Assembly: GCF_056746865.1 (NCBI RefSeq)
Contig: NZ_CM163382.1
Length of the DNA: 64,000 bases
Reading direction: 5' to 3' (one strand)
Every line of letters starts with the position of its first letter. The stretch's first letter is position 1. The position numbers and the translations under genes were made by a program. Under the pieces are notes generated by a model, which was given only the letters and a program-made list of their open reading frames with translations, did no database searches and was not told where the DNA came from. This document shows positions 3,001-54,631 of this stretch, piece by piece.

Positions 3001-6000
3001 GGCGGCCGATGACATTATTAACGCTGCCGAAGCGGGCAATGCGCAAACCATCAGTGGGCAGGTGACGGGTGCCGCGGCGGGCGACACAGTTACCGTTACG
3101 CTGGGTGGCAACACCTACACCGCCACGGTGCAGGCTAATTTAAGCTGGAGCGTTAGCGTGCCGGCGGCGGATATTCAGGCCATCGGCAATGGTAATCTCA
3201 CAGTAAACGCCTCGGTCACTAATGGCGTGGGCAACACCGGCAGCGGCTCGCGCGATATCACGATCGATGCCAATCTGCCTGGCTTGCGGGTCGATACCGT
3301 GGCGGGCGATGATGTTATTAACAGCATTGAGCACAATCAGGCGCTGGTGATAACAGGTAGCAGCACCGGGTTAACGGCGGGAACGGCGTTAACGGTCGAG
3401 ATTAACAACGTTACTTATGGCGCGACGGTATTAGCCGACGGCACGTGGAGCCTCGGTATTCCGGCGGCAGACGTCAGCAACTGGCCTGCGGGTACGGTGG
3501 ATATTACGGTAAGCGGCACCAACAGCGCCGGAACAACCTCTACCATTACCCATCCGGTTACCGTCGATCTGGCGGCGGTCGCCATCACCATTAACACCCT
3601 TTCCGGCGATGATGTGATCAACGCCGTGGAGAAAGGCGAAACGCTGGTCGTAAGCGGCAGCACCAGCGGTGTGGAAGCTGGGCAGACGGTGACCGTCACC
3701 TTTGGCGGTAAAAATTACACCACCACTGTGGAAGCCAACGGCAGCTGGACGGTGAATGTGCCGCCTGCCGATCTCGCTGCGCTACCGGACGGCGCGGGCA
3801 ACGTGCAGGCGAGCGTCAGCAATATTAACGGCAACAGCGCCCAGGCCGATCGCGCGTATAGCGTCGATGCCACCGCGCCGCTTATTACTATCAACACCAT
3901 CGCCAGCGACGATACTCTTAACGTGAGCGAAGCGGGCGCGGGGATCACCATCAGCGGCACCACCACGGCGCAGGCCGGGCAGACGCTGACCGTCACGCTC
4001 AATAACAACACGTACCAGACCACCATTCTCGCGGATGGCACCTGGAGCGTGAACGTTCCGGCAACGGATTTAAGCGGATTAACCGCCAGCAGTTATACCG
4101 TGACTGCGACGGTGAGCGACAAAGCGAGCAACCCGGCAAGCGCCGATCATGCGCTGGCGGTGGACGTTACCGCTCCGGATCTCACCATTAACACCGTCGC
4201 GGGCGATGACATCATCAACGCTATCGAACACGGGCAGGCGCTGGTGGTGAGCGGCACCAGCACGGGCGCGGCGGCAGGCGATGTGGTGACCGTCTCGCTC
4301 AACGGCAAAAACTACACCACCACGCTGGATGCCTCTGGTAACTGGAGCGTCGGTATCCCGGCGGCAGATGTGACGGCGCTGGCAACCGGAAGCCAGACCA
4401 TTACTGCCAGCCTGAGCGATCGCGCGGGCAACAGCGACAGCGCTACCCATAATGTCACCGTTGATCTTAGCGGCCCGACGCTGACCATCAGTACCGTCTC
4501 CGGCGACGACATCATCAATAATGCGGAGAAAACTCAGGATCTGACCATCAGCGGCGGCTCCAGCGGTCTGGCGACCGGCACCACGGTCACCGTGATGTTG
4601 AACGGCCTGGCGTACAGCGCCACCACCGATAGTTCCGGCAACTGGAGCGTTACCGTGCCTGCTTCGGCGGTCGGTGCCCTGGGCGAGGCGGTCTATTCGA
4701 TTAGCGCCAGCGCCACCGACAGCGCGGGCAACAGCGGCAGTACCACCCATACGGTGAATGTCGAATCGCTCCTGCCTGGGGTGATCATTAATACCGTGGC
4801 GGGCGATGACATTATCAACGCCGCTGAAATCGTTGTGGCGCAGACCATCAGCGGTCAGGTCACGGGAACGGCGGTTGCCGGGAATACGGTGATTGTCACC
4901 ATTGGCGGCAATCAATATAACGCCACCGTGCAGTCAGATTTAAGCTGGAGCGTCAGCGTACCGGCGAACGTTTTGCAGGCGCTGGGTAACGGTGAACTGA
5001 CCATCAGCGCCTCGGTGACCAATTCCGCAAATAATACCAGCACCGCGACGCACGATATCGTGATAGATGCCAACCTGCCAGGTCTGCGCGTCGATACCGT
5101 GGCAGGCGATGATGTGATTAACAGCATCGAGCACACTCAGGCGTTGGTGATCACCGGTAGCAGTAGCGGACTGGCGGCGGGCGCGGCGTTGACGGTGGTT
5201 ATCAATAGCGTCACCTACGGCGCAACGGTACTCGCCGATGGCAGCTGGAGCGTCGGTGTTCCGGCGGCAGATGTCACAAACTGGCCTGCGGGAACGGTCA
5301 ATATTGCCGTTTCTGGCACCAATACCGCCGGAACCACAACCAGCATTAGCCATCCGGTCACGGTCGATCTCGCGGCCGTGGCGATTACCATTAACACCCT
5401 TTCCACTGACGATGTGATTAATGCCGCCGAAAAAGGCAGCGATTTGCAGCTCTCCGGCACCACCTCCGATGTGGAAGCGGGGCAAACCATCACCGTTATC
5501 TTCGGCGGCAAAAGCTACACCACCACGGTTGCCGCGGGCGGCACCTGGGGGCTGACAATCCCAGCAGCCGATCTCGCAACCTTGCCTGACGGCGCAGCAA
5601 ACGTCCAGGCCAGCGTCAGCAACGTCGCAGGTAACAGCGCCCAGGCAACGCATGCTTACAGCGTCGATGCCACCGCGCCTTCCGTTACCATCAACACCAT
5701 CGCCACGGACGATATTCTTAACGCCGACGAAGCGGGATCGGCGCTGACCATCAGCGGCACCAGCACGGCGGAAGCCGGGCAGACGGTGACCGTGACGCTA
5801 AACGGCGTCAATTACAGCGGCAACGTGCAGGCAGACGGGAGCTGGAGCGTCAGCGTCCCGACCGGCGATTTAGCTAACCTCACTGCCAGCCCCTATACGG
5901 TGAGCGCAGCGGTCAGCGACAAAGCCGGAAATCCGGCCTCGGCGACGCATAACCTGACGGTGGATCTTGTTGCGCCGGTCGTTACCATTAACACGGTAGC

Positions 6001-17251: not shown

Positions 17252-19414
17252 ATGAAAAAAAATGCCCAGTCCGTGGAAGCCTGGCTGGAGGCGATGATCG
17301 CCGTGGCGCGTTATTACCGCCTTGATTTTTCTCAGGAGAATGTGCGCGCGACCGTCAACTGGGAGCGCGACAGTAAGCGGGAGGAGTTACTCACCGACAT
17401 GGCGCGGCAGTTGGGGATGGGGCTTCGGCTGGTGGAGTTCTCCACCGACTCGCTCAACCCGTGGCGGCTGCCGTTGATCGCCGTTTTTGATAATCAACAA
17501 ATTGGCGTGATCACCCGCCGTGACAATCACGACAATATCAGCATTCAGTTTAGCGGTGACGAAGGGCTGGAAACTACGCTTAACGTCGCGGATGTTGAGG
17601 ATAAAATCGTTGAACTGGCGCTACTGCGCCCGCTCAGCGCCATCCCTGACGCGCGGGTAGATGACTATATTCGCCCGTATCAGGCGAACTGGTTCTGGAG
17701 CCTTTCGCTAAAAGACTGGCGGCGCTACGGCGATATTATGCTGGCCTCGCTGGTGGCGAACGTGCTGGCGCTGGCGGCGATGATTTTCTCGATGCAGGTT
17801 TACGACCGGGTGGTTCCGGCGCAATCGTACCCGACGCTATGGGTGCTGTTCGCCGGGGTGATGATGGCGATCCTGTTTGAGTTCTGTATGCGCATGGTGC
17901 GCACACATCTTTCGGATGTGATCGGCAAGCGGGCGGATCTGCGCATTTCGGATCGCGTTTTTGGTCACGCATTACGGCTGAAAAATAACGTGCGATCGAA
18001 ATCCACCGGATCGTTTATCTCGCAGATCCGCGAGCTGGAATCGGTGCGGGAGCTGATTACTTCCACCACCATCGGCGCGGTGGCGGATCTGCCGTTCTTC
18101 CTGCTGTTTGTCTTTATTTTATGGATGATCGGCGGCTGGCTGGTGCTGGTGGTTTTGCTGGCGCTGCCGTTATTGGTGATCCCCGGCCTGCTGGTGCAAC
18201 GCCCGCTGGCGCGGCTGGCGAACGAAGGGATGCGCGAGTCGGCGGTGCGTAACGCTACGCTGGTGGAAGCCGTGCAGTCGATTGAAGATATTAAGCTGCT
18301 GCGCGCCGAACAGCGTTTTCAGAATCAGTGGAACCACACCAACGACGTGGCCTCGTCCATCAGCATGAAGCAACGTTTTCTCACCGGGCTACTGCTCACC
18401 TGGACCCAGGAAGTGCAGTCCATCGTTTACGTCGTGGTGCTGTTGGTGGGCTGCTTTATGGTAATGAACGGTGACATGACCACCGGCGCGCTGGTCGGGA
18501 CGACGATCCTGGCTTCGCGCACCATCGCGCCGCTGTCGCAGATATCCGGCGTGCTCTCGCGCTGGCAGCAGGCGAAAGTGGCGCGCAACGGACTTGATGA
18601 ACTGATGAAGCGCCCGGTGGATCAGCCGGAACACGGCAAACTGGTGCATAAAGCGGTGCTACACGGCAATTATCAGTTCAGCAACGCTATCTTTTATTAC
18701 GATGAAGAAGAGAAAATTGCCGATGTGGCGATTGGCAAACTCAACATTCAGGCCGGAGAGAAAATCGCCATTCTTGGGCGCAACGGCGCGGGTAAATCAA
18801 CGCTACTGCAAATGCTCGCCGGAATGCGTATCGCCCAGCAGGGGCAGGTGCTGCTGGATAACATCAGCATCGGTCAGCTTGATCCGGCGGATCTGCGCCG
18901 CGACATGGGGCTGCTGAGCCAGACCGGGAGACTCTTTTTCGGTTCGCTGCGGGAAAACCTGACGATGGGGATGCCGGAAGCCAGCGATGAAGATATCGAA
19001 CGCGCGTTAACCCTCAGCGGGGCGCTGCCGTTTGTGCAGAAGCAGAAAAACGGCCTCAACTACATGATTCAGGAAGGGGGATTTGGCCTCTCTGGTGGTC
19101 AGCGGCAAACGCTGCTGCTGGCGCGGCTGCTCATCTCTCAACCCAATATCGTGCTGCTCGATGAACCCAGCGCCTCGCTGGACGAAATGGCGGAAGCGCA
19201 TTTAATCGAACAACTGAAACAGTGGATTGGCCATCGCACGCTGATTATCGCCACTCACCGCACGGCGATGCTGCAACTGGTGGACCGCATTATCGTGATG
19301 GATCAGGGGCGGATTGTGATGGATGGCGCGAAAGAGGCCATTTTGCGTGAACAGAGCGAACCCACGGCGCGACGGGTGGTGTTGCAGGAGAAGAATAAGG
19401 GGTCTGCCGCATGA
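17252..19414 (+). CDS. T1SS ABC transporter (ATPase/permease, HlyB/LapB-like) with N-terminal C39-like domain
   Basis: 720 aa. Walker A GRNGAGKST, ABC signature LSGGQRQ, Walker B IVLLDEP and H-loop ATHR are present, with hydrophobic segments in the middle. Starts 4 bp after the adhesin stop and overlaps the next gene by 4 bp. Confidence 0.9.
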   Translation: MKKNAQSVEAWLEAMIAVARYYRLDFSQENVRATVNWERDSKREELLTDMARQLGMGLRLVEFSTDSLNPWRLPLIAVFDNQQIGVITRRDNHDNISIQFSGDEGLETTLNVADVEDKIVELALLRPLSAIPDARVDDYIRPYQANWFWSLSLKDWRRYGDIMLASLVANVLALAAMIFSMQVYDRVVPAQSYPTLWVLFAGVMMAILFEFCMRMVRTHLSDVIGKRADLRISDRVFGHALRLKNNVRSKSTGSFISQIRELESVRELITSTTIGAVADLPFFLLFVFILWMIGGWLVLVVLLALPLLVIPGLLVQRPLARLANEGMRESAVRNATLVEAVQSIEDIKLLRAEQRFQNQWNHTNDVASSISMKQRFLTGLLLTWTQEVQSIVYVVVLLVGCFMVMNGDMTTGALVGTTILASRTIAPLSQISGVLSRWQQAKVARNGLDELMKRPVDQPEHGKLVHKAVLHGNYQFSNAIFYYDEEEKIADVAIGKLNIQAGEKIAILGRNGAGKSTLLQMLAGMRIAQQGQVLLDNISIGQLDPADLRRDMGLLSQTGRLFFGSLRENLTMGMPEASDEDIERALTLSGALPFVQKQKNGLNYMIQEGGFGLSGGQRQTLLLARLLISQPNIVLLDEPSASLDEMAEAHLIEQLKQWIGHRTLIIATHRTAMLQLVDRIIVMDQGRIVMDGAKEAILREQSEPTARRVVLQEKNKGSAA

Positions 19415-20586
19415 ACGGACAACTGCAATACAACCGTGGCCTGACTGAACCCCGCTTGCCGCGTTCGGCGCTGGCGGTACGCGTTACCGCTGTGATGCTG
19501 CTCTGTTTTCTCGGCTGGGCGTGGTACTTCCAGCTTGATGAAGTCACCACCGGCAGCGGCACGGTAGAACCCTCCGGGCGCGAACAGGTGGTGCAGTCGC
19601 TGGAAGGCGGAATTCTGTATCATCTCGACGTCAAGGTTGGCGATATTGTTGAACAGGGCCAGCCACTGGCGCAGCTTAACCGCACCAAAACGGAATCCGA
19701 CGTCCAGGAAGCAATGTCGCGGCTGTACGCGGCGCTGGCAACCTCGGCGCGGCTGCGGGCGGAAGTGAGTAATAAACCGCTGGTCTTCCCTGACGAACTG
19801 AATAAATTCCCCGAACTTATCGAGTCGGAAACGGCGTTGTACAACACTCGCCGCGATGGGCTGAACAAAGCCACCACCGGGCTGACGCAGGGGATTAGCC
19901 TGGTCAACCGCGAACTGGCGATGACCCAGCCGCTGGTAAAACAGGGGGCGGCGAGCAGCGTTGAAGTGCTGCGCCTGCAACGCCAGGCCAATGAACTGGA
20001 AAACAAACTCAGCGACGTGCGCACGCAATACTACGTTCAGGCGCGCGAAGAGTTAGCAAAAGCCAATGCGGAAGTGGAAACCCAGCGTTCGGTGATCCGT
20101 GGACGGGAAGACTCCCTCACCCGGCTCAACTTTACCGCGCCGGTACGTGGCATTGTTCAGGACATTGACGTCACCACGGTTGGCGGCGTTATTGCCCCCG
20201 GTGGTAAACTGATGACCATCGTGCCGCTGGATGAGCAACTGCTGATCGAGGCAAAAATCTCCCCGCGCGATGTGGCGTTTATCCATCCGGGGCAAAAATC
20301 GCTGGTGAAAATAACCGCCTACGATTACTCCATCTACGGCGGCCTGCCGGGAGAAGTGGCGGTGATATCACCAGACACCGTGCAGGATGAAGTACGGCGC
20401 GATGTTTATTACTATCGGGTGTACATTCGCACTTTCAGCAACCATCTGGAAAATAAAAGCAAACAGCAGTTTCCGATATTCCCCGGTATGGTGGCGACGG
20501 TCGATATCCGCACCGGCAAAAAAAGCGTGCTGGATTATCTGTTGAAACCCTTTAACAAAGCACAGGAGGCGTTGCGCGAACGATGA
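19411..20586 (+). CDS. T1SS periplasmic adaptor (HlyD-family membrane fusion protein)
   Basis: 391 aa. N-terminal transmembrane helix ([20 protein letters not shown]), long coiled-coil-prone central region, C-terminal beta domain; start overlaps the ABC transporter stop. Confidence 0.85.
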
Positions 20587-21669: not shown

Positions 21670-23454
21670 TTAGAACGAATATCCCACGCCGACACCCGCA
21701 CCGAAATCAGATTGTGTATCCGCAGAAATACCTGCTTTAAGTACCGTATGCGTTCCGGCATTAAAAGATGTTCCTACAGACACCGCAGATTCACCGTTGT
21801 ACGTTCCCGCTCCCGCTGACACCATCATCAAGTCACCGGTTTTCACCTGTGGTTGTGAGGCGATAGCGATGGCAGATGCAGTTCCCGCATTGGCTTCTTT
21901 ACGATTGTCCTCAACTTCGTTTTTCAGAGAATCGAAATGGTTATTGAGCGTAGTAATCTGCTGGCTATTATCCGCTACTCGTTTTTGCGTGTTGCTTAAC
22001 TGCTGATGCGTTTGGGTTACGTCTTGTGTCAGGCTGTCAATTTGTTCATGCGTTTGTGTTGAGTCTTGCGCCAGACGCTGAATTTGTTCCCCGTACTGCA
22101 CACTATCGATATGCTGTTGCGTTGCCTGGTTAGTCGCCAGAGTATCTATTTTTTGTTTTTGTTCTGCTGCAGTACGCGCATTCGCATCATTTTGTGCTCT
22201 CAGTCCGGCGTTAACCATCTCTTGATAATGTGCGTTGGTCTGGGCATCGCCAAGTGCGGAAACCGTTTTTTGCGTCGCGTCGATTTGTTTCTGCTGATCG
22301 TCCATTTGTTGCTGCTGGGTGTCAGCTTGTGCCTGTTGCGCATTGGCAGCGGCTGTCTGTCTGGCGTCAATCATGCTCTGATATCGGGCGGCAGTCTGCA
22401 CATCCCCGGTGGCGGCAACGGTTTTCCGGGTTTCGTCGAGTTGTTGCTGCTGGTCAGCAATATCGCTGCGGTTCTGTTCGATATTATTTTTGTTTTCTGT
22501 CACAGCACCGGAAAGTTTGACGCCGTTCATCAGAGCGGTGTTGGCGTTAGCGTTGGCATGGTCAGCCGTTGACTGGGCATGTGCGACATCGCCTTTTATG
22601 TTGGTGACGTCTGACTGCACTGCGGAGACATCATTACGGGTGTCGGCGATGGCGGCTTTATTGGCATCAATATCCGTCTGCGCCACCATAATGGCGTGCT
22701 GCGCGTCATCAGCTTTCATTGAAGCCCAGTTGGCGACATGTTGTGCGTCCTGAATGGCGGTATCCTGCCCGTTGTCGCGGACGATCTGTTTTTGCTCGTT
22801 TGATGCCAACAGTTTCTGCTGGTCGGCAATATCGCTGCGGTTCTGTTCGATGTTGTTTTTGTTTTCTGTCACAGCACCGGAAAGTTTGACGCCGTTCATC
22901 AGAGCGGTGTTGGCGTTAGCGTTGGCATGGTCAGCCGTTGACTGGGCATGTGCGACATCGCCTTTTATGTTGGTGACGTCTGACTGCACTGCGGAGACAT
23001 CATTACGGGTGTCGGTGATGGCGGCTTTGTTGGCATCAATATCCGTCTGCGCCACCGTGATGGCGTGCTGCGCGTCATCAGCTTTCAGTGAAGCCCAGTT
23101 GGCGGCATGTTGTGCGTCCTGAATGGCGGTATCCTGCCCGTTGTCGCGGTCGGTCTGCGCTTGATTGGTTATCGGGTTCAGCGTATTGGCGGGCTGTACG
23201 GGAGAGGCAGCTGTATTTTCCTGAGGTGTCGTTGTCCGGTAATCATGCGCAATCAGATAATTTTGTGCGGCTGCACTATTCCCTGTCCTTTCTAAAAATC
23301 GACCAATTTTCTGATCAATTTCCGATTGCGACATTCCTGGCTGGATTGCCGTTAATTCTGTCGTTGCCGCCTCAACAGTATCACCCGCAAACGCAGATGG
23401 ACTTACCGCGGTAGCAACAACGACAGCCAGTAAAGACAGCTTTACAGTTTTCAT
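21670..23454 (-). CDS. Trimeric autotransporter adhesin-like protein with YadA-like C-terminal anchor (~594 aa)
   Basis: Sec signal MKTVKLSLLAVVVATAVSPSAFA; long Q/A/D-rich coiled-coil-like stalk with internal repeats; C-terminus GTASAIAIASQPQ...GAGVGVGYSF matches the YadA-type anchor pattern. ATG chosen at 23454; the ORF track extends to a TTG at 23472. Confidence 0.8.
   Translation of the reverse strand: MKTVKLSLLAVVVATAVSPSAFAGDTVEAATTELTAIQPGMSQSEIDQKIGRFLERTGNSAAAQNYLIAHDYRTTTPQENTAASPVQPANTLNPITNQAQTDRDNGQDTAIQDAQHAANWASLKADDAQHAITVAQTDIDANKAAITDTRNDVSAVQSDVTNIKGDVAHAQSTADHANANANTALMNGVKLSGAVTENKNNIEQNRSDIADQQKLLASNEQKQIVRDNGQDTAIQDAQHVANWASMKADDAQHAIMVAQTDIDANKAAIADTRNDVSAVQSDVTNIKGDVAHAQSTADHANANANTALMNGVKLSGAVTENKNNIEQNRSDIADQQQQLDETRKTVAATGDVQTAARYQSMIDARQTAAANAQQAQADTQQQQMDDQQKQIDATQKTVSALGDAQTNAHYQEMVNAGLRAQNDANARTAAEQKQKIDTLATNQATQQHIDSVQYGEQIQRLAQDSTQTHEQIDSLTQDVTQTHQQLSNTQKRVADNSQQITTLNNHFDSLKNEVEDNRKEANAGTASAIAIASQPQVKTGDLMMVSAGAGTYNGESAVSVGTSFNAGTHTVLKAGISADTQSDFGAGVGVGYSF
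22440..23160. repeat. Near-identical ~369-bp tandem duplication (two copies) inside the autotransporter stalk
   Basis: Sequence from ctgctggtcagcaatatcgctgcggttctgttcg at 22447 recurs at 22816 with few mismatches; encodes the duplicated ~123-aa block DNGQDTAIQDAQH...NIEQNRSDIADQQ. Confidence 0.85.
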
Positions 23455-32997: not shown

Positions 32998-33305
32998 TAG
33001 CTACGTTTCCTCAGTTATTCAATAAACTGACGGATCAGTTCCAGCAGCGCGATTAGCGCCTTAAGAACGATGAGAACTGCCTCTCTCCAAATTAGAGCAC
33101 CAGAATCAGCACCACCTGTATCCTGACCAGGACTTAAAAGTACTTTTCCGCACTGCGGTAATCCCTTGAGGCAGTATCACTACTAGCGTCGGGATTGTAT
33201 CGCCAACATAGCTGTTTGAATATGTAGGCATCCTGACTTATAATTCATTTGCTAGATGAGGACTGTTTCATTTCTGCCCGGAACCACCAAGTCTTGGGCG
33301 GAAAA

Positions 33306-33340
33306 AATAAAAAAACCGACTGTCATGTCGGTTTTTTTAT
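33306..33340. terminator. Bidirectional rho-independent terminator downstream of selU
   Basis: aaaaaaaccgac-tgtcat-gtcggttttttt: stem-loop flanked by an A-run and a T-run. Confidence 0.65.
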
Positions 33341-46349: not shown

Positions 46350-46364
46350 ACCTGAATTTACCGC

Positions 46365-46395
46365 AAAAAAAGCCACGGTATAAACCGTGGCAAAA
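46365..46395. terminator. Bidirectional terminator between glxK and allE
   Basis: aaaaaaa-gccacggt-ataa-accgtggc-aaaa. Confidence 0.6.
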
Positions 46396-46433
46396 TCCAA
46401 CATAGCTAAAAATAATCAGGCGAGTGGTATGAC

Positions 46434-47219
46434 TTAAATCTCTACGTCGCGGTTGCAATCTTTCGAGTAAATATAACTAAACGCTTCACCACGCCCTACG
46501 CCATAACCGGCCTGTAAGGAATAAGCGCCCATGAAGATGTAATCGCCTTTTTTCACCGGGATCCAGTTATTGTCGAGGTTATAAACCCCCTGACCGGAAA
46601 GAATATAGGCACCGTGTTCCTGGACGTGAGTTTCGATATAACCGTGGCTGGCACCTGGCGCAAAAGAGAGGATATGCATGTTCATATCAAAACCTAACTC
46701 TTTGGGCAGAAAATCTAGCAGAATAACATCGTCCATGCCTTCATAATGAATGCGTTCGAGTTCGCTGGCATTGCCAGAAACCAGCCACGGTGCATGGCCT
46801 TCTACCGGAACATAGCGGCGCTTATATAAAAAGATTTGGCTGTCTTCGGCCTGGGCGTTAACAAACGTCATTAAGGAGCCTGGTGGGCAATAAAGATAGC
46901 CACCTTCGCTTAAGGCAAATGTTTTGCCTTCAGCTTTGGCAGTGATATTTCCAGAGATCACATACAGGAACGTTTCAATGCCTTCGCCACCGAAGCCCTG
47001 TTGGTTGCCACCGTTTTGATGCAGTGTGACCAGATAATCAACAAAAGAGGCACCCAGCTTTGGCGTGGAGAGGATTGTCGCGTCACAATTTTCAAAGCCC
47101 GGAATAATATTTTTTACCAGACCATCCGGGGTTAAAAGTGCGAAATTACCGTGTTTAACAATCGCACGGTTAGCCAGTAAATCATCGCGGTAACCGGTGA
47201 CGTTATTTAAATATCCCAT
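46434..47219 (-). CDS. allE: Ureidoglycine aminohydrolase (cupin) AllE/YlbA
   Basis: 261 aa, MGYLNNVTGYRDDLLANRAIVKHGNFALL... Confidence 0.9.
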   Translation of the reverse strand: MGYLNNVTGYRDDLLANRAIVKHGNFALLTPDGLVKNIIPGFENCDATILSTPKLGASFVDYLVTLHQNGGNQQGFGGEGIETFLYVISGNITAKAEGKTFALSEGGYLYCPPGSLMTFVNAQAEDSQIFLYKRRYVPVEGHAPWLVSGNASELERIHYEGMDDVILLDFLPKELGFDMNMHILSFAPGASHGYIETHVQEHGAYILSGQGVYNLDNNWIPVKKGDYIFMGAYSLQAGYGVGRGEAFSYIYSKDCNRDVEI

Positions 47220-47229
47220 TTATGACTCC

Positions 47230-48465
47230 TTATTTCTGCCAGGCAAGTTGATAAAGCATGAGTGCCAACGTTTTGACCCCTTCGGCAAGGTCGGTAATAT
47301 TGGTGCGTTCCGCCGGGTTATGGCTGATCCCGTTGATGCTGGGGATAAAAATCATGCAGGTTGGTACGCGAGGCGCGAAAATTTGCGCGTCGTGCCCGGC
47401 ACCACTGTGCATCACCCGGTAATTCAGTTTTTCACTTTCACACAATTCTATCAGGGTGGCGACCAGTTCCTTGTTCATCGGCACGGGTTCTTCGTCCATC
47501 CATAAATCGATATCAATACCAATGTCCATTTCATCGCAAATCGCCCGCATGTCGTTTTCTAACTGTTGGGTGAAATCGCGCAGCACGGCAGCATCGGTAT
47601 GGCGACAATCAATGGTGAACGTGGTTTTACCCGGCACCACATTCACCGTATTCGGGCGCGGCTCCACCTTACCAAAGGTCAGCACCAGCGGGTCGCCCAT
47701 CTTTTTCGCTTTTTCGACAGACTGATGGCAAATGCGACTGAAAGCGTAAACCGTATCACGACGATAACCCATCGGCGTGGTGCCTGCATGGTTTGATTCG
47801 CCGTTCAGCGTCACCGTATAGCGACGCTGCCCGACAATTGCATTCACCACGCCAATTGATTGACCATTACTTTCCAGCACACAGCCCTGTTCGATATGCA
47901 GTTCGACAAAGGCTTTAATATCCTGACGCGGAGTTAGTGGGGCGTTCGGCAGAGTAAATCCGCAAGCCTTCATCGCATCGACAAAACTATTTCCTTTGGC
48001 ATCACAGATATTCCGCACGTCGTCAGGATTCGCCAGCCCAAAGATATTTTTACTGCCCCAGAAGACATACGGGAAGCGGCTGCCTTCTTCTTCTGCCATC
48101 GCCACCACTTCGACCGTACGTAACGGCGCGCCGTATTGCGTTTTCAGCCAGTCAATTGCCAGCCACGCCGCCAGCGCGCCGAATTGCCCGTCGAGGTTAC
48201 CGCCGTTAACCACGGTATCGATATGCGAACCGCTCAGAACCACTTCTTGTGGATATTCGGTGCCACTCAGGCGACCATATAAATTCCCCACTTCATCGAA
48301 ACGTGTTTCCAGCCCGCTTGCTGCCATTCTTTTTTTAAATTGCTGCTGAGTTTCCAGCCATTCCGGCGAATAAAGTAAACGGGTCATCCCACCCGTTGGG
48401 TCAGCGCCAAAAGAGGAAAGCCAGGGCAGCGTTTCTTCTATGGCTTGACGGAAATGTGTAATCAT
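47230..48465 (-). CDS. allC: Allantoate amidohydrolase
   Basis: Start placed at MITHFRQAIEETLPWLSSFGADPTGGMTRLLY...; M20-family peptidase fold. Confidence 0.9.
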   Translation of the reverse strand: MITHFRQAIEETLPWLSSFGADPTGGMTRLLYSPEWLETQQQFKKRMAASGLETRFDEVGNLYGRLSGTEYPQEVVLSGSHIDTVVNGGNLDGQFGALAAWLAIDWLKTQYGAPLRTVEVVAMAEEEGSRFPYVFWGSKNIFGLANPDDVRNICDAKGNSFVDAMKACGFTLPNAPLTPRQDIKAFVELHIEQGCVLESNGQSIGVVNAIVGQRRYTVTLNGESNHAGTTPMGYRRDTVYAFSRICHQSVEKAKKMGDPLVLTFGKVEPRPNTVNVVPGKTTFTIDCRHTDAAVLRDFTQQLENDMRAICDEMDIGIDIDLWMDEEPVPMNKELVATLIELCESEKLNYRVMHSGAGHDAQIFAPRVPTCMIFIPSINGISHNPAERTNITDLAEGVKTLALMLYQLAWQK

Positions 48466-48486
48466 AAGAAAGTCCTGTCTCAATAA

Positions 48487-49536
48487 TTATTGCGCAAAGG
48501 GATTTTTCGTTTCGTATGACGTGTTATAAAGCGCGTCAGAAATTAAATACTGGTAAATATCATCAACAATTTCGATGCCTTCGACGGCGGCTTTGCGTTG
48601 TTTAATATCCTGATCCTGTCCGGGATAATAAACCTGGTTAAAACCGGGCGCGGGGGTTATGGCATTTAATTCGCGCATGGTCTGGCTAAGATGTTGACGG
48701 AATAGTTCGCTGGAGGAGAAAAAGTTCGGGTTAATAACGATATGTAATTGCCCCAAATTACGCCCGGCGTGTAAATCGTCATACATCGAACTAACCTGTC
48801 GCCCGAACGGTAAGCCGAGTAAGACGCCTGAGAGGACGTCAATCATCATCATCAGGCCATACCCTTTCGGTCCGGCGGCAGGGAGCAGGGCGTTAACTGC
48901 AAATGGATCGGTTGTTGGTGCTCCGTTTTTATCGACCGCCCAGGTATCCGGGATAGACATATTACGCGAGCGGGCGTCGAGCACTTTTCCCCATGCCTGT
49001 ACGGTAGTCGCCATATCAAAGGTAAGGATCTCGTCGCCTTCTCCCGGCGCGGCAAAGGCCAGTGGGTTAGTACCGTAGTAAATTTCCGCGCCGCCAAACG
49101 GCACCACCATTGGATCGGACTGGCACATCGAAATGCCAATTAATCCTGCGCGGGCTGCCTGCTGCACAAAATAAGAGATTGCGCCGCTGTGACCCATCCG
49201 GCTGATACCGACCACCGCAACGCCATTTTGCTGGGCGGTTTTGATGGCATGTTCCATACCCATTTTCGCCGCGACCTGTCCGGCAGCATTGTCGGCATGT
49301 AAAATTGCCGAACACGGCCCGGTTTCTTCAAGACGAAATTCCGGTTCACGGTTGGTGCCGCCTTTTGAAATGCGTTCCGCGTAGTATTCCACGCGCACCG
49401 CGCCATGAGAGTGGATCCCTCTGGCATCGGCGTAAACCAATACTTCAGCCACGGTTGCAGCGTGCTCACGTTTTAACCCAGCCTGGCAGAGTTTATTCTC
49501 GATTAGCTGGCGGAGTGTTTCCCGACTGATTTTCAT
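48487..49536 (-). CDS. allD: Ureidoglycolate dehydrogenase
   Basis: 349 aa, MKISRETLRQLIENKLCQAGLKREHAATVAEVLVYADARGIHSHG... Confidence 0.9.
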   Translation of the reverse strand: MKISRETLRQLIENKLCQAGLKREHAATVAEVLVYADARGIHSHGAVRVEYYAERISKGGTNREPEFRLEETGPCSAILHADNAAGQVAAKMGMEHAIKTAQQNGVAVVGISRMGHSGAISYFVQQAARAGLIGISMCQSDPMVVPFGGAEIYYGTNPLAFAAPGEGDEILTFDMATTVQAWGKVLDARSRNMSIPDTWAVDKNGAPTTDPFAVNALLPAAGPKGYGLMMMIDVLSGVLLGLPFGRQVSSMYDDLHAGRNLGQLHIVINPNFFSSSELFRQHLSQTMRELNAITPAPGFNQVYYPGQDQDIKQRKAAVEGIEIVDDIYQYLISDALYNTSYETKNPFAQ

Positions 49537-49595
49537 CTGTCTTCCTTTTTAACGACGGTGTGAAGCATGACTGCAATTAACATACAGGGAAAATA

Positions 49596-49615
49596 TCTGG
49601 ATTATGTGATCCAGA
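49596..49615. promoter_or_regulatory. Palindrome in the divergent allD/fdrA control region (candidate operator)
   Basis: tctggat-tatgtg-atccaga, a perfect 7-bp inverted repeat with 6-bp spacer in a 316-bp AT-rich intergenic region. Confidence 0.3.
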
Positions 49616-49852
49616 CAGGCAAAAAAATATAGTTAGAATTTATTTGATAATCCGCTCGCTTTTAACCTGGTTTTTAAAACAACCACGCTTATTAAAAAAT
49701 AACACGTAATAGCATGGCGGTTATTTGAATTCTTTTGTTAATAATCCCTGTGTGATATTCATCACCTTATTTTCCCGTTCTCATCGATACCGTAATCGCC
49801 ACATTAACACTGCTCGTGCAATTGCCATGGGTGCAATTTTTAAGGAGTTGTT

Positions 49853-51520
49853 ATGATCCACGCCTTTATTAAAAAAGGGTGTTTTCAGGATTCTGTCAGT
49901 TTAATGATTATTTCACGAAAACTCAGCGAATCAGAAAATGTTGATGATGTTTCCGTAATGATGGGTACGCCCGCCAATAAAGCGTTATTAGATACCACAG
50001 GTTTCTGGCATGACGATTTTAATAACGCCACGCCGAACGATATTTGCGTGGCAATTCGTAGCGAAGCGGCGGATGCGGGGATCGCGCAGGCGATTATGCA
50101 ACAGCTTGAAGAGGCGCTAAAACAACTGGCGCAGGGTTCAGGCAGCAGCCAGGCGTTGACGCAGGTGCGTCGCTGGGACAGTGCCTGTCAGAAATTACCC
50201 GATGCCAGTCTGGCGCTGATTTCAGTGGCTGGCGAGTATGCGGCGGAGCTGGCTAATCAGGCGCTGGATCGCAACCTCAACGTGATGATGTTCTCCGATA
50301 ACGTCACGCTGGAAGATGAAATCCAGCTCAAAACCCGCGCACGCGATAAAGGCTTGCTGGTGATGGGGCCGGACTGCGGTACGTCGATGATTGCCGCCAC
50401 GCCGCTGGCTTTTGCTAACGTGATGCCGGAAGGCAATATTGGCGTCATTGGCGCTTCCGGTACCGGGATTCAGGAGCTGTGTTCGCAGATTGCGCTGGCA
50501 GGTGAGGGAATTACCCACGCGATTGGTCTTGGCGGGCGCGACCTCAGCCGTGAAGTGGGCGGCATCAGTGCGCTAACGGCGCTGGAAATGTTAAGCGCCG
50601 ACGCGAAAAGCGAAGTGCTGGCATTTGTTTCAAAACCACCTGCCGAAGCTGTGCGTCTGAAAATTGTTAATGCCATGAAAGCAACCGGCAAACCGACGGT
50701 GGCGCTGTTTTTAGGTTATACCCCGGCGGTGGCCCGCGACGAGAATGTCTGGTTTGCCTCCTCGCTTGATGAGGCCGCACGCCTGGCTTGCCTGCTTTCA
50801 CGCGTCACGGCGCGACGTAACGCAATAGCACCTGTCAGCAGCGGATTTATTTGCGGTTTGTATACCGGCGGTACGCTGGCTGCTGAAGCGGCGGGATTAC
50901 TTGCCGGACACCTTGGCGTGGAAGCCGACGATACCCATCAACATGGCATGATGCTCGACGCCGACGGACATCAGATCCTCGACCTGGGCGATGATTTTTA
51001 CACCGTCGGGCGTCCCCATCCGATGATCGACCCGACCTTACGCAACCTGTTAATTGCCGATCTCGGCGCTAAACCGCAAGTGCGCGTGTTGCTGCTTGAT
51101 GTCGTGATTGGCTTCGGTGCGACTGCCGATCCTGCCGCCTCGCTGGTGAGCGCCTGGCAAAAAGCCTGTGCCGCGCGTCCAGACAATCAACCACTGTATG
51201 CCATTGCCACGGTGACAGGCACCGAACGTGACCCGCAATGCCGCTCGCAACAAATCGCCACGCTGGAAGATGCGGGGATCGCGGTCGTGAGTTCGCTGCC
51301 GGAAGCCACCTTGCTGGCGGCAGCGTTAATTCATCCGCTCTCGCCTGCCACACAGCAACACACACCGTCATTACTGGAAAACGTCGCCGTGATTAACATC
51401 GGATTACGCAGCTTTGCGCTGGCGCTACAAAGCGCCAGCAAACCGGTTGTGCATTACCAATGGTCGCCAGTCGCCGGCGGCAATAAAAAACTGGCTCGTT
51501 TATTAGAACGTTTGCAATAA
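49853..51520 (+). CDS. fdrA: FdrA (CoA-binding, succinyl-CoA synthetase alpha-like) protein
   Basis: 555 aa, MIHAFIKKGCFQDSVSLMIISRKLSESENVDDVSVMMGTPANK... Confidence 0.85.
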   Translation: MIHAFIKKGCFQDSVSLMIISRKLSESENVDDVSVMMGTPANKALLDTTGFWHDDFNNATPNDICVAIRSEAADAGIAQAIMQQLEEALKQLAQGSGSSQALTQVRRWDSACQKLPDASLALISVAGEYAAELANQALDRNLNVMMFSDNVTLEDEIQLKTRARDKGLLVMGPDCGTSMIAATPLAFANVMPEGNIGVIGASGTGIQELCSQIALAGEGITHAIGLGGRDLSREVGGISALTALEMLSADAKSEVLAFVSKPPAEAVRLKIVNAMKATGKPTVALFLGYTPAVARDENVWFASSLDEAARLACLLSRVTARRNAIAPVSSGFICGLYTGGTLAAEAAGLLAGHLGVEADDTHQHGMMLDADGHQILDLGDDFYTVGRPHPMIDPTLRNLLIADLGAKPQVRVLLLDVVIGFGATADPAASLVSAWQKACAARPDNQPLYAIATVTGTERDPQCRSQQIATLEDAGIAVVSSLPEATLLAAALIHPLSPATQQHTPSLLENVAVINIGLRSFALALQSASKPVVHYQWSPVAGGNKKLARLLERLQ

Positions 51521-51529
51521 GGGGTTCCC

Positions 51530-52789
51530 ATGTTTACATCAGTGGCGCAAGCCAATGCTGCGGTTATCGAACAAATTCGTCGTGCTCGTCCACACTGGCT
51601 GGATGTGCAACCGGCTTCTTCACTTATCAGCGAACTAAACGAGGGCAAAACACTGCTTCACGCCGGGCCGCCAATGTGCTGGCAGGAGATGACCGGACCC
51701 ATGAAAGGGGCATGTGTGGGCGCATGTCTGTTTGAAGGCTGGGCGAAAGATGAAGCGCAGGCGCTGGCAATGCTGGATCAGGGGGAAGTGAACTTCATTC
51801 CTTGTCACCATGTGAATGCCGTCGGGCCAATGGGCGGCATTACTTCTGCCAGTATGCCGATGCTGGTGGTCGAGAACGTGACCGACGGCAACCGGGCGTA
51901 CTGCAACCTCAACGAAGGTATCGGCAAAGTGATGCGTTTTGGCGCTTACGGCGAAGATGTCCTGACTCGCCATCGCTGGATGCGCGATGTGTTAATGCCA
52001 GTATTAAGCGCGGCGCTGGGGCGCATGGAGCGCGGTATCGATCTCACCGCGATGATGGCGCAGGGCATTACCATGGGCGATGAGTTCCATCAACGCAATA
52101 TTGCTTCCTCAGCACTGTTAATGCGTACGCTGGCCCCACAAATTGCTCGCCTCGATCATGATAAACAGCACATTGCGGAAGTGATGGATTTCCTCAGCGT
52201 GACCGATCAGTTCTTCCTCAACCTCGCGATGGCCTACTGCAAGGCGGCGATGGATGCTGGCGCGATGATCCGCTCAGGCAGCATCGTCACGGCTATGACC
52301 CGCAACGGCAATATGTTCGGGATTCGGGTCAGCGGGCTGGGCGAACGCTGGTTTACTGCGCCTGTAAACACTCCCCAAGGTCTGTTTTTCACCGGTTTCT
52401 CGCAGGAGCAGGCGAACCCGGATATGGGCGATAGCGCAATTACCGAAACCTTTGGTATTGGCGGAGCGGCGATGATCGCAGCGCCTGGCGTAACGCGCTT
52501 TGTCGGTGCGGGTGGCATGGAAGCGGCCAGAGCGGTATCTGAAGAGATGGCGGAAATCTTCCTTGAACGCAATATGCAGTTGCAGATCCCCGGCTGGGAT
52601 TTTCAGGGCGCGTGCCTGGGGCTGGATATTCGTCGCGTGGTAGAAACCGGCATTACGCCACTCATCAATACCGGTATCGCCCATAAAGAGGCGGGGATCG
52701 GGCAGATTGGCGCAGGCACTGTGCGGGCACCGCTGGCGTGCTTTGAACAGGCGCTGGAAGCACTGGCTGAAAGCATGGGGATTGGTTGA
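51530..52789 (+). CDS. ylbE: DUF1116-family protein YlbE (intact)
   Basis: 419-aa uninterrupted ORF between fdrA and ylbF. Confidence 0.8.
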
Positions 52790-52799
52790 GGAACGCACA

Positions 52800-53615
52800 A
52801 TGACGATCATCCATCCTCTGCTTGCCAGCCGTAGTGCACCGAATTATCGCCAGTCCTGGCGGTTAGCGGGCGTGTGGCGGCGGGCGATTAACCTGATGAC
52901 GGAAAGCGGTGAATTGTTAACACTGCATCGTCAGGGTAGTGGTTTCGGCCCCGGAGGATGGGTGCTTCGCCGCGCGCAATTCGATGCGTTATGCGGTGGA
53001 TTATGCGGCAATGAACAACCGCAGGTTGTGGCACAAGGGATTCGCCTCGGACGTTTCACGGTTAAACAGCCACAGCGTTATTGTTTGCTGCGTATTACGC
53101 CGCCTGCGCATCCTCAACCGCTTGCAGCTGCATGGATGCAACGCGCGGAGGAAACCGGGCTTTTCGGGCCACTGGCGTTGGCGGCAGGCGATCCGCTTCC
53201 TGCTGAATTACGCCAGTTTCGCCACTGTTTTCAGGCCGCGCTCAATGGCGTGAAGACCGACTGGCGGCACTGGCTGGGCAAAGGTCCGGGATTAACGCCG
53301 AGTCATGATGACACGCTGAGCGGAATGCTGCTGGCGGCCTGGTATTATGGCGCTTTAGATACGCGCTCCGGTCGCCAGTTTTTTGCCTGTTCCGACAATC
53401 TTCAACTCGTTACCACAGCGGTGAGCGTCAGTTATTTACGTTATGCCGCGCAAGGATATTTCGCCTCGCCACTCCTGCACTTTGTCCATGCTCTGAGTTG
53501 CCCGAAACGTACCGCTGTTGCGATTGATTCGCTGCTGGCGCTGGGGCATACGTCAGGGGCAGATACGCTGCTGGGGTTCTGGCTTGGTCAACAATTATTA
53601 CAAGGAAAACCATGA
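52800..53615 (+). CDS. ylbF: DUF2877-family protein YlbF
   Basis: Start placed at [28 protein letters not shown]...; the longer ORF from 52707 overlaps ylbE out of frame. Confidence 0.8.
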
Positions 53616-54505
53616 AAACACTGGTTGTGGCTCTTGGGGGCAACGCCTTACTCCAGCGCGGTGAGGCGCTGACGGCGGAAAATCAATATCGCAATATCGC
53701 CAGTGCTGTACCCGCGCTGGCACGCCTGGCCCGTTCTTATCGGCTGGCGATTGTTCACGGCAACGGGCCGCAGGTGGGGCTGCTGGCATTGCAGAATCTG
53801 GCGTGGAAAGAAGTGGAACCGTATCCGCTGGATGTGCTGGTGGCGGAAAGCCAGGGGATGATTGGCTATATGCTGGCGCAGAGCTTGAGCGCACAGCCGC
53901 AGATGCCGCCTGTCACGACGGTGCTGACGCGCATTGAAGTTTCGCCTGATGATCCGGCATTTTTACAGCCAGAGAAGTTTATCGGTCCGGTTTATCAGCC
54001 AGAAGAACAAAAGGCACTGGAAGCGGCTTACGGCTGGCAGATGAAACGTGATGGTAAATACTTGCGCCGGGTGGTGGCGTCTCCGCAACCGCGTAAAATT
54101 CTCGACAGCGAAGCCATCGAGTTGTTGCTCAAAGAGGGGCATGTGGTGATTTGCAGTGGTGGTGGCGGTGTGCCTGTGACGGACGACGGAGCAGGGAGCG
54201 AAGCAGTGATTGATAAAGATCTCGCCGCTGCGTTGCTCGCCGAGCAGATTAACGCCGATGGGCTGGTGATCCTCACCGATGCTGACGCGGTTTATGAAAA
54301 CTGGGGAACGCCGCAGCAACGCGCCATTCGCCGTGCCACACCGGATGAGTTAGCGCCATTTGCCAAAGCCGATGGTTCGATGGGGCCGAAGGTAACGGCG
54401 GTGAGTGGCTATGTCAGAAGCCGTGGCAAACCTGCGTGGATTGGGGCGTTATCGCGGATTGAAGAGACGCTGGCGGGCGAAGCGGGGACCTGTATTTCGC
54501 TGTAG
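53612..54505 (+). CDS. ybcF: Carbamate kinase-like protein YbcF
   Basis: 297 aa, [29 protein letters not shown]... (amino acid kinase fold); start overlaps the ylbF stop. Confidence 0.85.
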
Positions 54506-54630
54506 TCGTAGGCATTAGACATTTGTGCCTGATGCGACGCTTGACGCGTCTTATCAGGCCTACAATGGGTACCGGAGCGTTAAGCCGGATAAGGCGTTCA
54601 CGCCGAATCCGGTAAGAATATGTGCACCAG
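54506..54630. repeat. REP/BIME palindromic repeats between ybcF and purK
   Basis: gcctgatgcgacgcttgacgcgtcttatcaggcctaca and gccggataaggcgttcacgccgaatccggt motifs. Confidence 0.6.
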
Positions 54631-54631
54631 G

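Follow-up and report, generated by a model that had tools for sequence, protein, structure and literature searches.

The fdrA-ylbE-ylbF-ybcF (allFGHK) operon is a core operon of Escherichia coli and of little consequence for discovery; experiments from the years 2022 to 2025 have identified its enzymes and regulators. YbcF (AllK) is a catabolic carbamate kinase, as demonstrated by the activity of the purified protein (Kim & Kim 2022; PMC9843812), and RT-PCR established that the four genes are transcribed together in K-12 (PMC9843812). FdrA, YlbE and YlbF together (AllFGH) constitute the oxamic transcarbamylase, or OXTCase: purified AllF-AllG-AllH produces oxalurate from oxamate and carbamoyl phosphate with measured kinetics (Kim & Kim 2024; PMC11326118). 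Wild-type MG1655 converted 19.5 mM allantoin into 17.7 mM oxamate, a conversion abolished by deletion of allG (ylbE); oxamate formation was lost in single and triple allFGH deletions, and complementation required all three genes (PMC11326118). AllS and ArcA act as activators of the operon (Kim & Kim 2025). The deletion mutants and purified proteins of the pathway studies were those of MG1655 and the regulation was studied in the K-12 strain MC4100.

In the pathway thus demonstrated in K-12, AllB, AllC and AllE convert allantoin into ureidoglycolate, which AllD oxidizes to the oxalurate feeding AllFGH. The three-subunit AllF-AllG-AllH enzyme then reacts oxalurate with phosphate to yield oxamate and carbamoyl phosphate, and AllK transfers the phosphoryl group to ADP, generating ATP and carbamate, the latter decomposing into NH3 and CO2. 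Transcription from the allD-allF intergenic region requires both AllS, conveying the allantoin signal, and ArcA, conveying anaerobiosis.

The window considered here is the whole analysed stretch of 64,000 nucleotides from contig NZ_CM163382.1 of RefSeq assembly GCF_056746865.1. Its open reading frames place four co-directional genes on the + strand exactly between positions 49853 and 54505, and both this placement, as given in the preliminary description of the locus, and the family assignments (FdrA subfamily, AllG/DUF1116, AllH/DUF2877 and carbamate kinase equivalog) were confirmed. The first gene, fdrA or allF (49853..51520), encodes a 555 aa OXTCase subunit with a succinyl-CoA-synthetase-alpha-like fold that matches the FdrA subfamily model NF004760 of NCBIfam over its full length (1035.9 bits for a cut-off of 433) and the PDB entry 3DMY, 'Protein fdrA' (E 9e-302). 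The second OXTCase subunit is encoded by ylbE or allG (51530..52789), an intact frame of 419 codons (419 aa) devoid of internal stops, which matches Pfam PF06545 AllG, formerly DUF1116 (E 1.2e-97), and has a PDB homologue in 3CLQ (E 2e-111). The third subunit gene, ylbF or allH (52800..53615; 271 aa), starts at the ATG at 52800 just downstream of a GAGGAA, a start identical in MG1655; its product matches Pfam PF11392 AllH, formerly DUF2877 (E 2.1e-29), and a PDB sequence search at E values up to 1 yielded no solved relative. NCBIfam gives no family for either YlbE or YlbF, and Pfam was needed for both. The last gene, ybcF or allK (53612..54505; 297 aa), encodes the catabolic carbamate kinase, recognized by the NCBIfam equivalog NF006926 (619.1 bits for a cut-off of 416), by TIGR00746 (426 bits for a cut-off of 358) and by PDB matches to carbamate kinases with E values down to 5e-89. 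In RefSeq, many products still bear outdated names ('acyl-CoA synthetase FdrA', 'DUF1116', 'DUF2877'), although the literature and Pfam have moved on to AllF, AllG and AllH, the oxamate carbamoyltransferase subunits.

The four genes are separated by gaps of 9 and 10 nt followed by a 4-nt overlap in which the ybcF start overlaps the ylbF stop (ATGA), a spacing consistent with a single transcript. They lie within the allantoin gene cluster of the E. coli chromosome, divergently from the allE-allC-allD operon (46434..49536, - strand), whose products are ureidoglycine aminohydrolase, allantoate amidohydrolase and ureidoglycolate dehydrogenase. Further upstream, the window contains allS, allA, allR, gcl, hyi, glxR, allW, allB, ybbY and glxK. 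The identity of these neighbours was drawn from their ORFs and from the annotation of the near-identical strain 118UI, which shows 4 differences to the window over 49,852 bases. The position beside allantoin catabolic genes claimed in the preliminary description is correct, with allE/allC/allD and the gcl-hyi-glxR-allW-allB-ybbY-glxK block as neighbours.

The MG1655 allFGHK operon (b0518, b4572, b0520, b0521) consists of the same genes in the same order, with the same lengths, start codons and junctions, and is likewise divergent from allDCE and located upstream of purK. Across the four genes, the nucleotide identity amounts to 96.5-97.2% and the protein identity to 98-99%, with 10 amino acid differences in FdrA, 7 in YlbE, 5 in YlbF and 3 in YbcF. 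Overall, the operon of the window differs from that of MG1655 by these 25 substitutions, by 12 promoter SNPs and by one REP-type unit fewer after ybcF. The dN/dS ratios relative to MG1655 (0.10 for fdrA, 0.07 for ylbE, 0.07 for ylbF and 0.03 for ybcF) indicate that the four genes are under strong purifying selection. From this 98-99% identity to the assayed MG1655 proteins, the dN/dS range of 0.03-0.10, the intact reading frames and the conserved architecture, we infer that the proteins of the window fulfil the OXTCase and carbamate kinase roles in this strain; they carry their 25 substitutions relative to the proteins that were assayed. The operon almost certainly serves the last two steps of anaerobic allantoin degradation and constitutes its oxamate branch. 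The role initially proposed for it, the conversion of a carbamoyl intermediate with a gain of ATP, was right and matches the purified-protein work, and the accompanying view of a poorly characterised pathway, proposed but not firmly shown, is outdated since both the OXTCase and the carbamate kinase activities have been measured (PMC11326118, PMC9843812).

The locus had attracted attention because its ylbE was intact, the K-12 MG1655 copy being taken for a disrupted pseudogene. This contrast does not hold, and the observation named in the preliminary description as one that would refute it, an intact K-12 ylbE, is what the current reference shows. In the MG1655 reference NC_000913.3, ylbE (b4572, YP_009029994.1) is an intact CDS of 1260 nt and 419 codons; the two copies align with 97.2% DNA identity, the same start and equal length, and do not differ in integrity. 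Neither is the intact form a trait of this strain. At least 30 E. coli chromosomes carry the entire 4,653-bp cluster with 100% DNA identity, the cluster is matched in 5,423 of the 5,426 complete E. coli genomes (with at least 80% coverage in 5,407), and ylbE itself reaches at least 80% coverage in 5,417 of them. Integrity in these 5,426 genomes was gauged by two proxies, a 44-nt query specific for a four-G allele described below and a sample of ylbE matches taken at even spacing, whose 39 full-length copies all measured exactly 1260 nt. In E. coli, MG1655 included, ylbE is normally intact.

The origin of the contrast can be traced to a homopolymer run at nt 252-256 of ylbE (51781..51785, + strand), where the K-12 'frameshift' of the older records falls and which reads GGGGG both in the window and in NC_000913.3. 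The computed deletion of one G from the run in the window creates a stop after codon 86. The W3110 record NC_007779.1 displays GGGG at this position, with ylbE annotated by PGAP as 'frameshifted', and its ylbE differs from that of MG1655 only at the run and at nt 114, the two ylbE sites also reported in resequencing papers (PMC4404585 among them). The legacy K-12 records, namely W3110 and the older MG1655 reference of the resequencing papers, describe the same locus and the same gene as the window but with G4 for G5, A for G at nt 114 and a stop after codon 86. A 2012 paper states that no other sequenced E. coli has the frameshift and considers it a probable sequencing error (PMC3364942), and the variant with the additional G has been reported as common to MG1655 stocks (PMC4404585). 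A full-text literature search returned no paper directly documenting a ylbE correction in U00096.3; that the reference was corrected is deduced from the current RefSeq record, the W3110 comparison and the resequencing papers. The K-12 ylbE 'pseudogene' is a legacy of these older records.

One could argue instead that K-12, or at least its W3110 branch, is truly frameshifted in ylbE, so that the window would differ functionally from some laboratory K-12 strains. Beyond the W3110 record, the same G4 allele was retrieved from three further K-12-type records, CIT, LIM and CAR, making 4 of about 5,415 matching records when the allele-specific 44-nt query was run against the 5,426 complete E. coli genomes. 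However, ylbE lies at 547,830 or 547,831 in CIT, LIM and CAR versus 547,830 in the W3110 record, and these near-identical coordinates suggest reference-guided assembly. The G5 run or a 1260-nt ylbE is moreover present in the MG1655 reference, in CP032667 and CP010442 (both MG1655) and in C600, J53, ME8067, ER1709 and ER2683, and MG1655 allG is functional in vivo (PMC11326118). Together with the 2012 assessment and the resequenced stocks cited above, these observations make a genuine K-12 frameshift improbable; the G4 of W3110 itself is either a record error or a true sub-strain mutation. Since the K-12 contrast rests on an old record with one G missing, nothing is unusual at this locus, which is with very little doubt the ordinary, conserved and intact allFGHK operon of E. 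coli, already known. The ylbE/allG gene should not be annotated as a K-12 pseudogene.

A second question concerns the CoA-ligase character of FdrA, for which the 2012 study had proposed a hypothesis (PMC3364942). FdrA would then be an acyl-CoA synthetase or an oxamate:CoA ligase activating oxamate, the transcarbamylase being encoded elsewhere, for instance by ygeW. The protein does bear Pfam CoA_binding (193-287) and Ligase_CoA (336-491) domains, which relate it to the SucD/ATP-citrate lyase superfamily, and 'acyl-CoA synthetase FdrA' is still its RefSeq product name in most genomes. Residues 118-290 of FdrA align to residues 66-238 of SucD, the alpha subunit of succinyl-CoA synthetase, with 21% identity (E 4e-9), the SucD segments GPNCPG, SRSGTLTYE and GIGGD having GPDCGT, GASGTGIQE and GLGGRD as counterparts. 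This weak similarity ends before His246 of SucD, which belongs to the GHAGA phosphohistidine loop, and a GHAGA-like motif was looked for in the FdrA sequence and found absent. Unlike SucD, FdrA is also about twice as long and operates with AllG and AllH, whereas the SucD-type partner is an ATP-grasp beta subunit. With 50.9 bits against the succinyl-CoA synthetase alpha model, far under the cut-off of 336, and with the phosphohistidine loop missing, FdrA was ruled out as a member of that family.

The biochemical data weigh in the same direction. The purified AllFGH enzyme carries out a transcarbamylation in which, unlike in the succinyl-CoA synthetase reaction, no CoA thioester is formed, its three genes are all needed for oxamate formation, and YgeW lacks OXTCase activity (PMC11326118). 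The CoA-ligase reading is already largely refuted, and we regard its chances as minimal.

Membership of AllFGH in the classical aspartate/ornithine transcarbamylase group was rejected as well: no OTCase/ATCase domain family was found among the NCBIfam or Pfam matches of FdrA, YlbE and YlbF, in agreement with published observations (PMC11326118). AllFGH shares with the classical transcarbamylases the type of reaction, a reversible carbamoyl transfer with carbamoyl phosphate as one partner and an acceptor amine or amide as the other, but is without sequence similarity to ATCase PyrB, OTCase ArgI/ArgF or YgeW, and it is composed of three different subunits where the classical enzymes possess a homotrimeric catalytic core (PMC11326118).

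The authors of the OXTCase study propose no catalytic mechanism (PMC11326118), and the 2012 study had argued that the OXTCase reaction is unlike CoA-ligase chemistry (PMC3364942); both points weigh against the mechanistic analogy set out here. AllF would have kept the succinyl-CoA-synthetase-alpha scaffold and lost the phosphohistidine loop, and this loss raises the possibility, with low confidence, that the enzyme performs a direct phosphorolysis yielding an acyl phosphate. Such a reaction would have its parallel in the first half-reaction of succinyl-CoA synthetase, in which succinyl-CoA and Pi give succinyl phosphate, and the phosphorylation of the nucleotide (ADP) would be handed over to a separate kinase, AllK. 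By this analogy, AllFGH might be a mechanistically new transcarbamylase that splits oxalurate by direct phosphorolysis, carbamoyl phosphate being the acyl phosphate formed, a tentative reading that we consider rather doubtful. If true, it would hold for the whole enzyme family, the window being no special case.

The divergent intergenic region between allD and fdrA (49537..49852, + strand) holds the promoter of the operon. By position, the EMSA fragment bound by AllS (-203/-144; PMC12535856) corresponds to 49650-49709 and the one bound by ArcA-P (-142/-83; PMC12535856) to 49711-49770. Alignment to MG1655 revealed 12 SNPs over the 316 bp, none of them outside the stretch from -195 to -73. The AllS fragment contains 6 of these SNPs and the ArcA fragment 3; the one at -183 adjoins the predicted AllS motif centre (-181). 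These promoter SNPs may change how the oxamate branch is tuned in this lineage, where expression could differ from K-12. That the intact operon is actually regulated unlike in K-12 through SNPs in AllS/ArcA-bound DNA nevertheless appears unlikely. With 12 SNPs in 123 bp (about 10%), the variable stretch has diverged as much as the synonymous sites of the adjacent genes (dS 0.09-0.14), which fits neutral drift. At both ends of the region, over 121 bp next to allD and over the 72 bp that precede the fdrA ATG, the sequence does not differ from MG1655. The exact AllS and ArcA motifs are moreover no more than in silico predictions, and crude lysates were used for the EMSA (PMC12535856). A scan for consensus promoters and terminators between 49400 and 54750 gave no more hits than expected from shuffled sequence.

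An Rfam scan of positions 33000-58000 detected no RNA family within the four-gene cluster. The sole matches in that interval, STnc480 and AgrB, are located outside the cluster. Downstream of the operon, the ybcF-purK intergenic region (54506..54631) is about 70 bp shorter in the window than in MG1655. It harbours two palindromic units, at 54527-54559 and 54584-54613, which we take to be of the REP type known from E. coli REP/BIME sequences.

The interval 49853-54505 of the window contains four open reading frames, all in one direction, which correspond to fdrA, ylbE, ylbF and ybcF, or allF, allG, allH and allK in the newer nomenclature of the allFGHK operon. On the plus strand, fdrA (49853-51520) encodes 555 amino acids, ylbE (51530-52789) 419 amino acids without any internal stop codon, ylbF, from an ATG at 52800, 271 amino acids and ybcF (53612-54505) 297 amino acids. 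A longer ylbF frame opening at TTG 52707 represents only a mechanical maximum and the ATG was retained. Successive genes are joined by a 9-nt gap, a 10-nt gap and a 4-nt ATGA overlap, and the ribosome-binding sites AAGGAG, AAGGGG and GAGGAA were recognized by eye upstream of fdrA, ylbE and ylbF, respectively. The minus-strand genes allE-allC-allD (46434-49536) adjoin the cluster, with the remaining allantoin regulon nearby. These frames and their neighborhood bear out the preliminary description of an intact four-gene cluster beside the allantoin genes, including a clean 419-codon ylbE.

FdrA falls into subfamily NF004760 (1035.9 bits for a cut-off of 433) and YbcF into the carbamate kinase equivalog NF006926 (619 bits for a cut-off of 416), while YlbE and YlbF match Pfam families PF06545 and PF11392, presently named 'Oxamate carbamoyltransferase subunit AllG' and 'subunit AllH'. 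Judged from these profiles, the family memberships of all four proteins are unambiguous.

The same description had taken ylbE to be a pseudogene in K-12 MG1655, which does not hold: in the current RefSeq sequence NC_000913.3, ylbE (b4572, YP_009029994.1) is an intact CDS of 1260 nt, the very result that the description had named as refuting it. Alignment of the two genes reveals no difference in integrity; they share length and start, are 97.2% identical at the nucleotide level and differ by 7 amino acids, and the premise of an MG1655 lacking intact ylbE is obsolete. The products of fdrA, ylbF and ybcF each differ from their MG1655 counterparts by 3-10 amino acids. The dN/dS ratios between window and MG1655 (fdrA 0.10, ylbE 0.07, ylbF 0.07, ybcF 0.03) indicate that each of the four is under strong purifying selection.

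The pseudogene form depends on a run of guanines at ylbE nt 252-256, which counts five G in the window (51781-51785) and in MG1655; computed removal of one G introduces a stop after codon 86. In the W3110 record NC_007779.1 (positions 2311-3569 of its segment L003), the run counts four G and nt 114 is A instead of G; the differences from MG1655 ylbE are confined to these two sites and PGAP annotates the gene as 'frameshifted'. Comparisons of K-12 strains with the earlier MG1655 reference list these two sites as 'mutations' (547,694 A>G along with 547,831 +G in older coordinates), and they were regarded as variants shared by MG1655 stock cultures (PMC5460176; PMC4404585; PMC3045373). With an allele-specific 44-nt query, the four-G form was encountered in only 4 of about 5,415 matching records, namely W3110 and three K-12-type records (CIT, LIM and CAR) in which ylbE occupies almost the same coordinates as in W3110 and the frameshift is likewise accompanied by A at nt 114. 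In these four, the shorter run could reflect either a record error or a real sub-strain mutation. NZ_CP026028.1 is among the records with this frameshift and the nt-114 A.

The operon is an already known, core Escherichia coli locus. At least 30 E. coli chromosomes match the interval 49853-54505 with 100% identity. Of 5,426 complete E. coli genomes, 5,423 contain a match to the cluster, and coverage reaches 80% or more in 5,407. Strain 118UI (NZ_CP032515.1) differs from the window at no more than six positions over 64 kb. At least 80% of ylbE is covered in 5,417 of the 5,426 genomes, and when ylbE matches were sampled at even spacing, all 39 full-length ones spanned exactly 1260 nt. Together with the rarity of the four-G form, these counts establish intact ylbE as the species norm, MG1655 included. 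Three to six genomes gave no match in the cluster and ylbE searches, ylbE is reduced to nt 822-1260 in NZ_CP029741.1 (AR_0085) and two copies of the cluster lie on records typed as plasmids.

The view that this pathway was proposed but not firmly shown has been superseded by activities measured with purified K-12 proteins (PMC11326118; PMC9843812), and the pathway is now characterized in K-12. Wild-type MG1655 converted 19.5 mM allantoin into 17.7 mM oxamate; deletion of allF, allG or allH reduced oxamate to 0, 0 and 1.2 mM, respectively, and only the three genes together restored the wild-type level (PMC11326118). The purified AllF-AllG-AllH complex, or oxamic transcarbamylase (OXTCase), forms oxalurate from oxamate (KM 36.9 mM) and carbamoyl phosphate (KM 1.3 mM) (PMC11326118). 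Work on YbcF demonstrated carbamate kinase activity of the purified protein and co-transcription of the four genes (PMC9843812). In K-12 strain MC4100, expression depends on two regulators that bind upstream of allF, AllS on fragment -203/-144 and ArcA on fragment -142/-83 (PMC12535856). The pathway thus runs as follows: AllB, AllC and AllE convert allantoin into ureidoglycolate, AllD produces oxalurate, AllFGH splits it with phosphate into oxamate and carbamoyl phosphate, and AllK uses the latter with ADP to yield ATP, NH3 and CO2. Near-identity to the assayed K-12 proteins suggests that allFGHK would function likewise in the window strain. Klebsiella pneumoniae is stated to lack allFGHK (PMC11326118), which may be valid for classical strains only; fdrA, ylbE and ylbF are mentioned in many papers on hypervirulent K. 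pneumoniae.

The OXTCase paper does not give the catalytic mechanism (PMC11326118), and our literature search turned up nothing on the structure or mechanism of the complex. FdrA carries the Pfam domains CoA_binding and Ligase_CoA, and it can be aligned to SucD (FdrA 118-290, SucD 66-238; E 4e-9), with counterparts of the SucD segments GPNCPG, SRSGTLTYE and GIGGD identified by eye in that stretch. The alignment ends just short of the SucD phosphohistidine loop GHAGA (His246); a GHAGA-like motif is absent from FdrA and residues 390-493 contain no histidine. FdrA scores far below the succinyl-CoA synthetase cut-offs and was rejected as a member of that family. The conversion of oxalurate and Pi into carbamoyl phosphate and oxamate is a phosphorolysis yielding an acyl phosphate, formally like that of succinyl-CoA and Pi into succinyl phosphate and CoA. 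The SucD-like alignment, the missing loop and this chemistry tentatively favor direct phosphorolysis by AllFGH on a succinyl-CoA-synthetase-like scaffold, ATP formation being left to AllK. Crystal structures exist for FdrA alone (3DMY) and an AllG homolog (3CLQ), and none was found in the PDB for AllH; 3DMY starts at residue 82 of 555 and is missing the N-terminal 81 residues (window 49853-50095).

The 316-bp allD-fdrA intergenic region carries 12 SNPs relative to MG1655, clustered from -195 to -73 relative to the fdrA ATG (about window 49650-49780); its two flanks, 121 bp toward allD and 72 bp beside fdrA, are identical. Six SNPs lie in the published EMSA fragment for AllS and three in that for ArcA, where a regulatory effect is putative; divergence within the SNP cluster (~10%) about equals the synonymous divergence of neighboring genes, which makes neutral drift the simplest reading of the sequence. 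Two REP-type palindromic units lie in the 126-bp ybcF-purK spacer (54506-54631); the MG1655 spacer measures 194 bp and has one extra unit of ~70 bp, a BIME copy-number difference.

Elsewhere, the window opens with 17.2 kb from the 3' part of siiEA, a giant BapA-related adhesin gene of 20.8 kb in 118UI. Next come genes for a type I secretion permease/ATPase (17252-19414) and an HlyD adaptor (19411-20586), the latter just upstream of cueR; K-12 presumably retains only remnants of this adhesin locus at the position. A minus-strand gene for a YadA-like protein lies at 21670-22719. Between ybbP and mnmH/selU, a minus-strand dinQ-like type I toxin gene (33015-33092, from the 118UI annotation) and a plus-strand Rfam match to AgrB antisense RNA (33252-33340; 53.6 bits, gathering score 40) look like an extra dinQ/agrB-type toxin-antitoxin locus (33015-33340). 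We take the rhsD element to occupy this position in MG1655, where the region examined contains only ylbG beside selU. Within the allantoin cluster, the glxK-allE intergenic region matches the STnc480 sRNA (46361-46427; 84.9 bits, Rfam gathering score 72).
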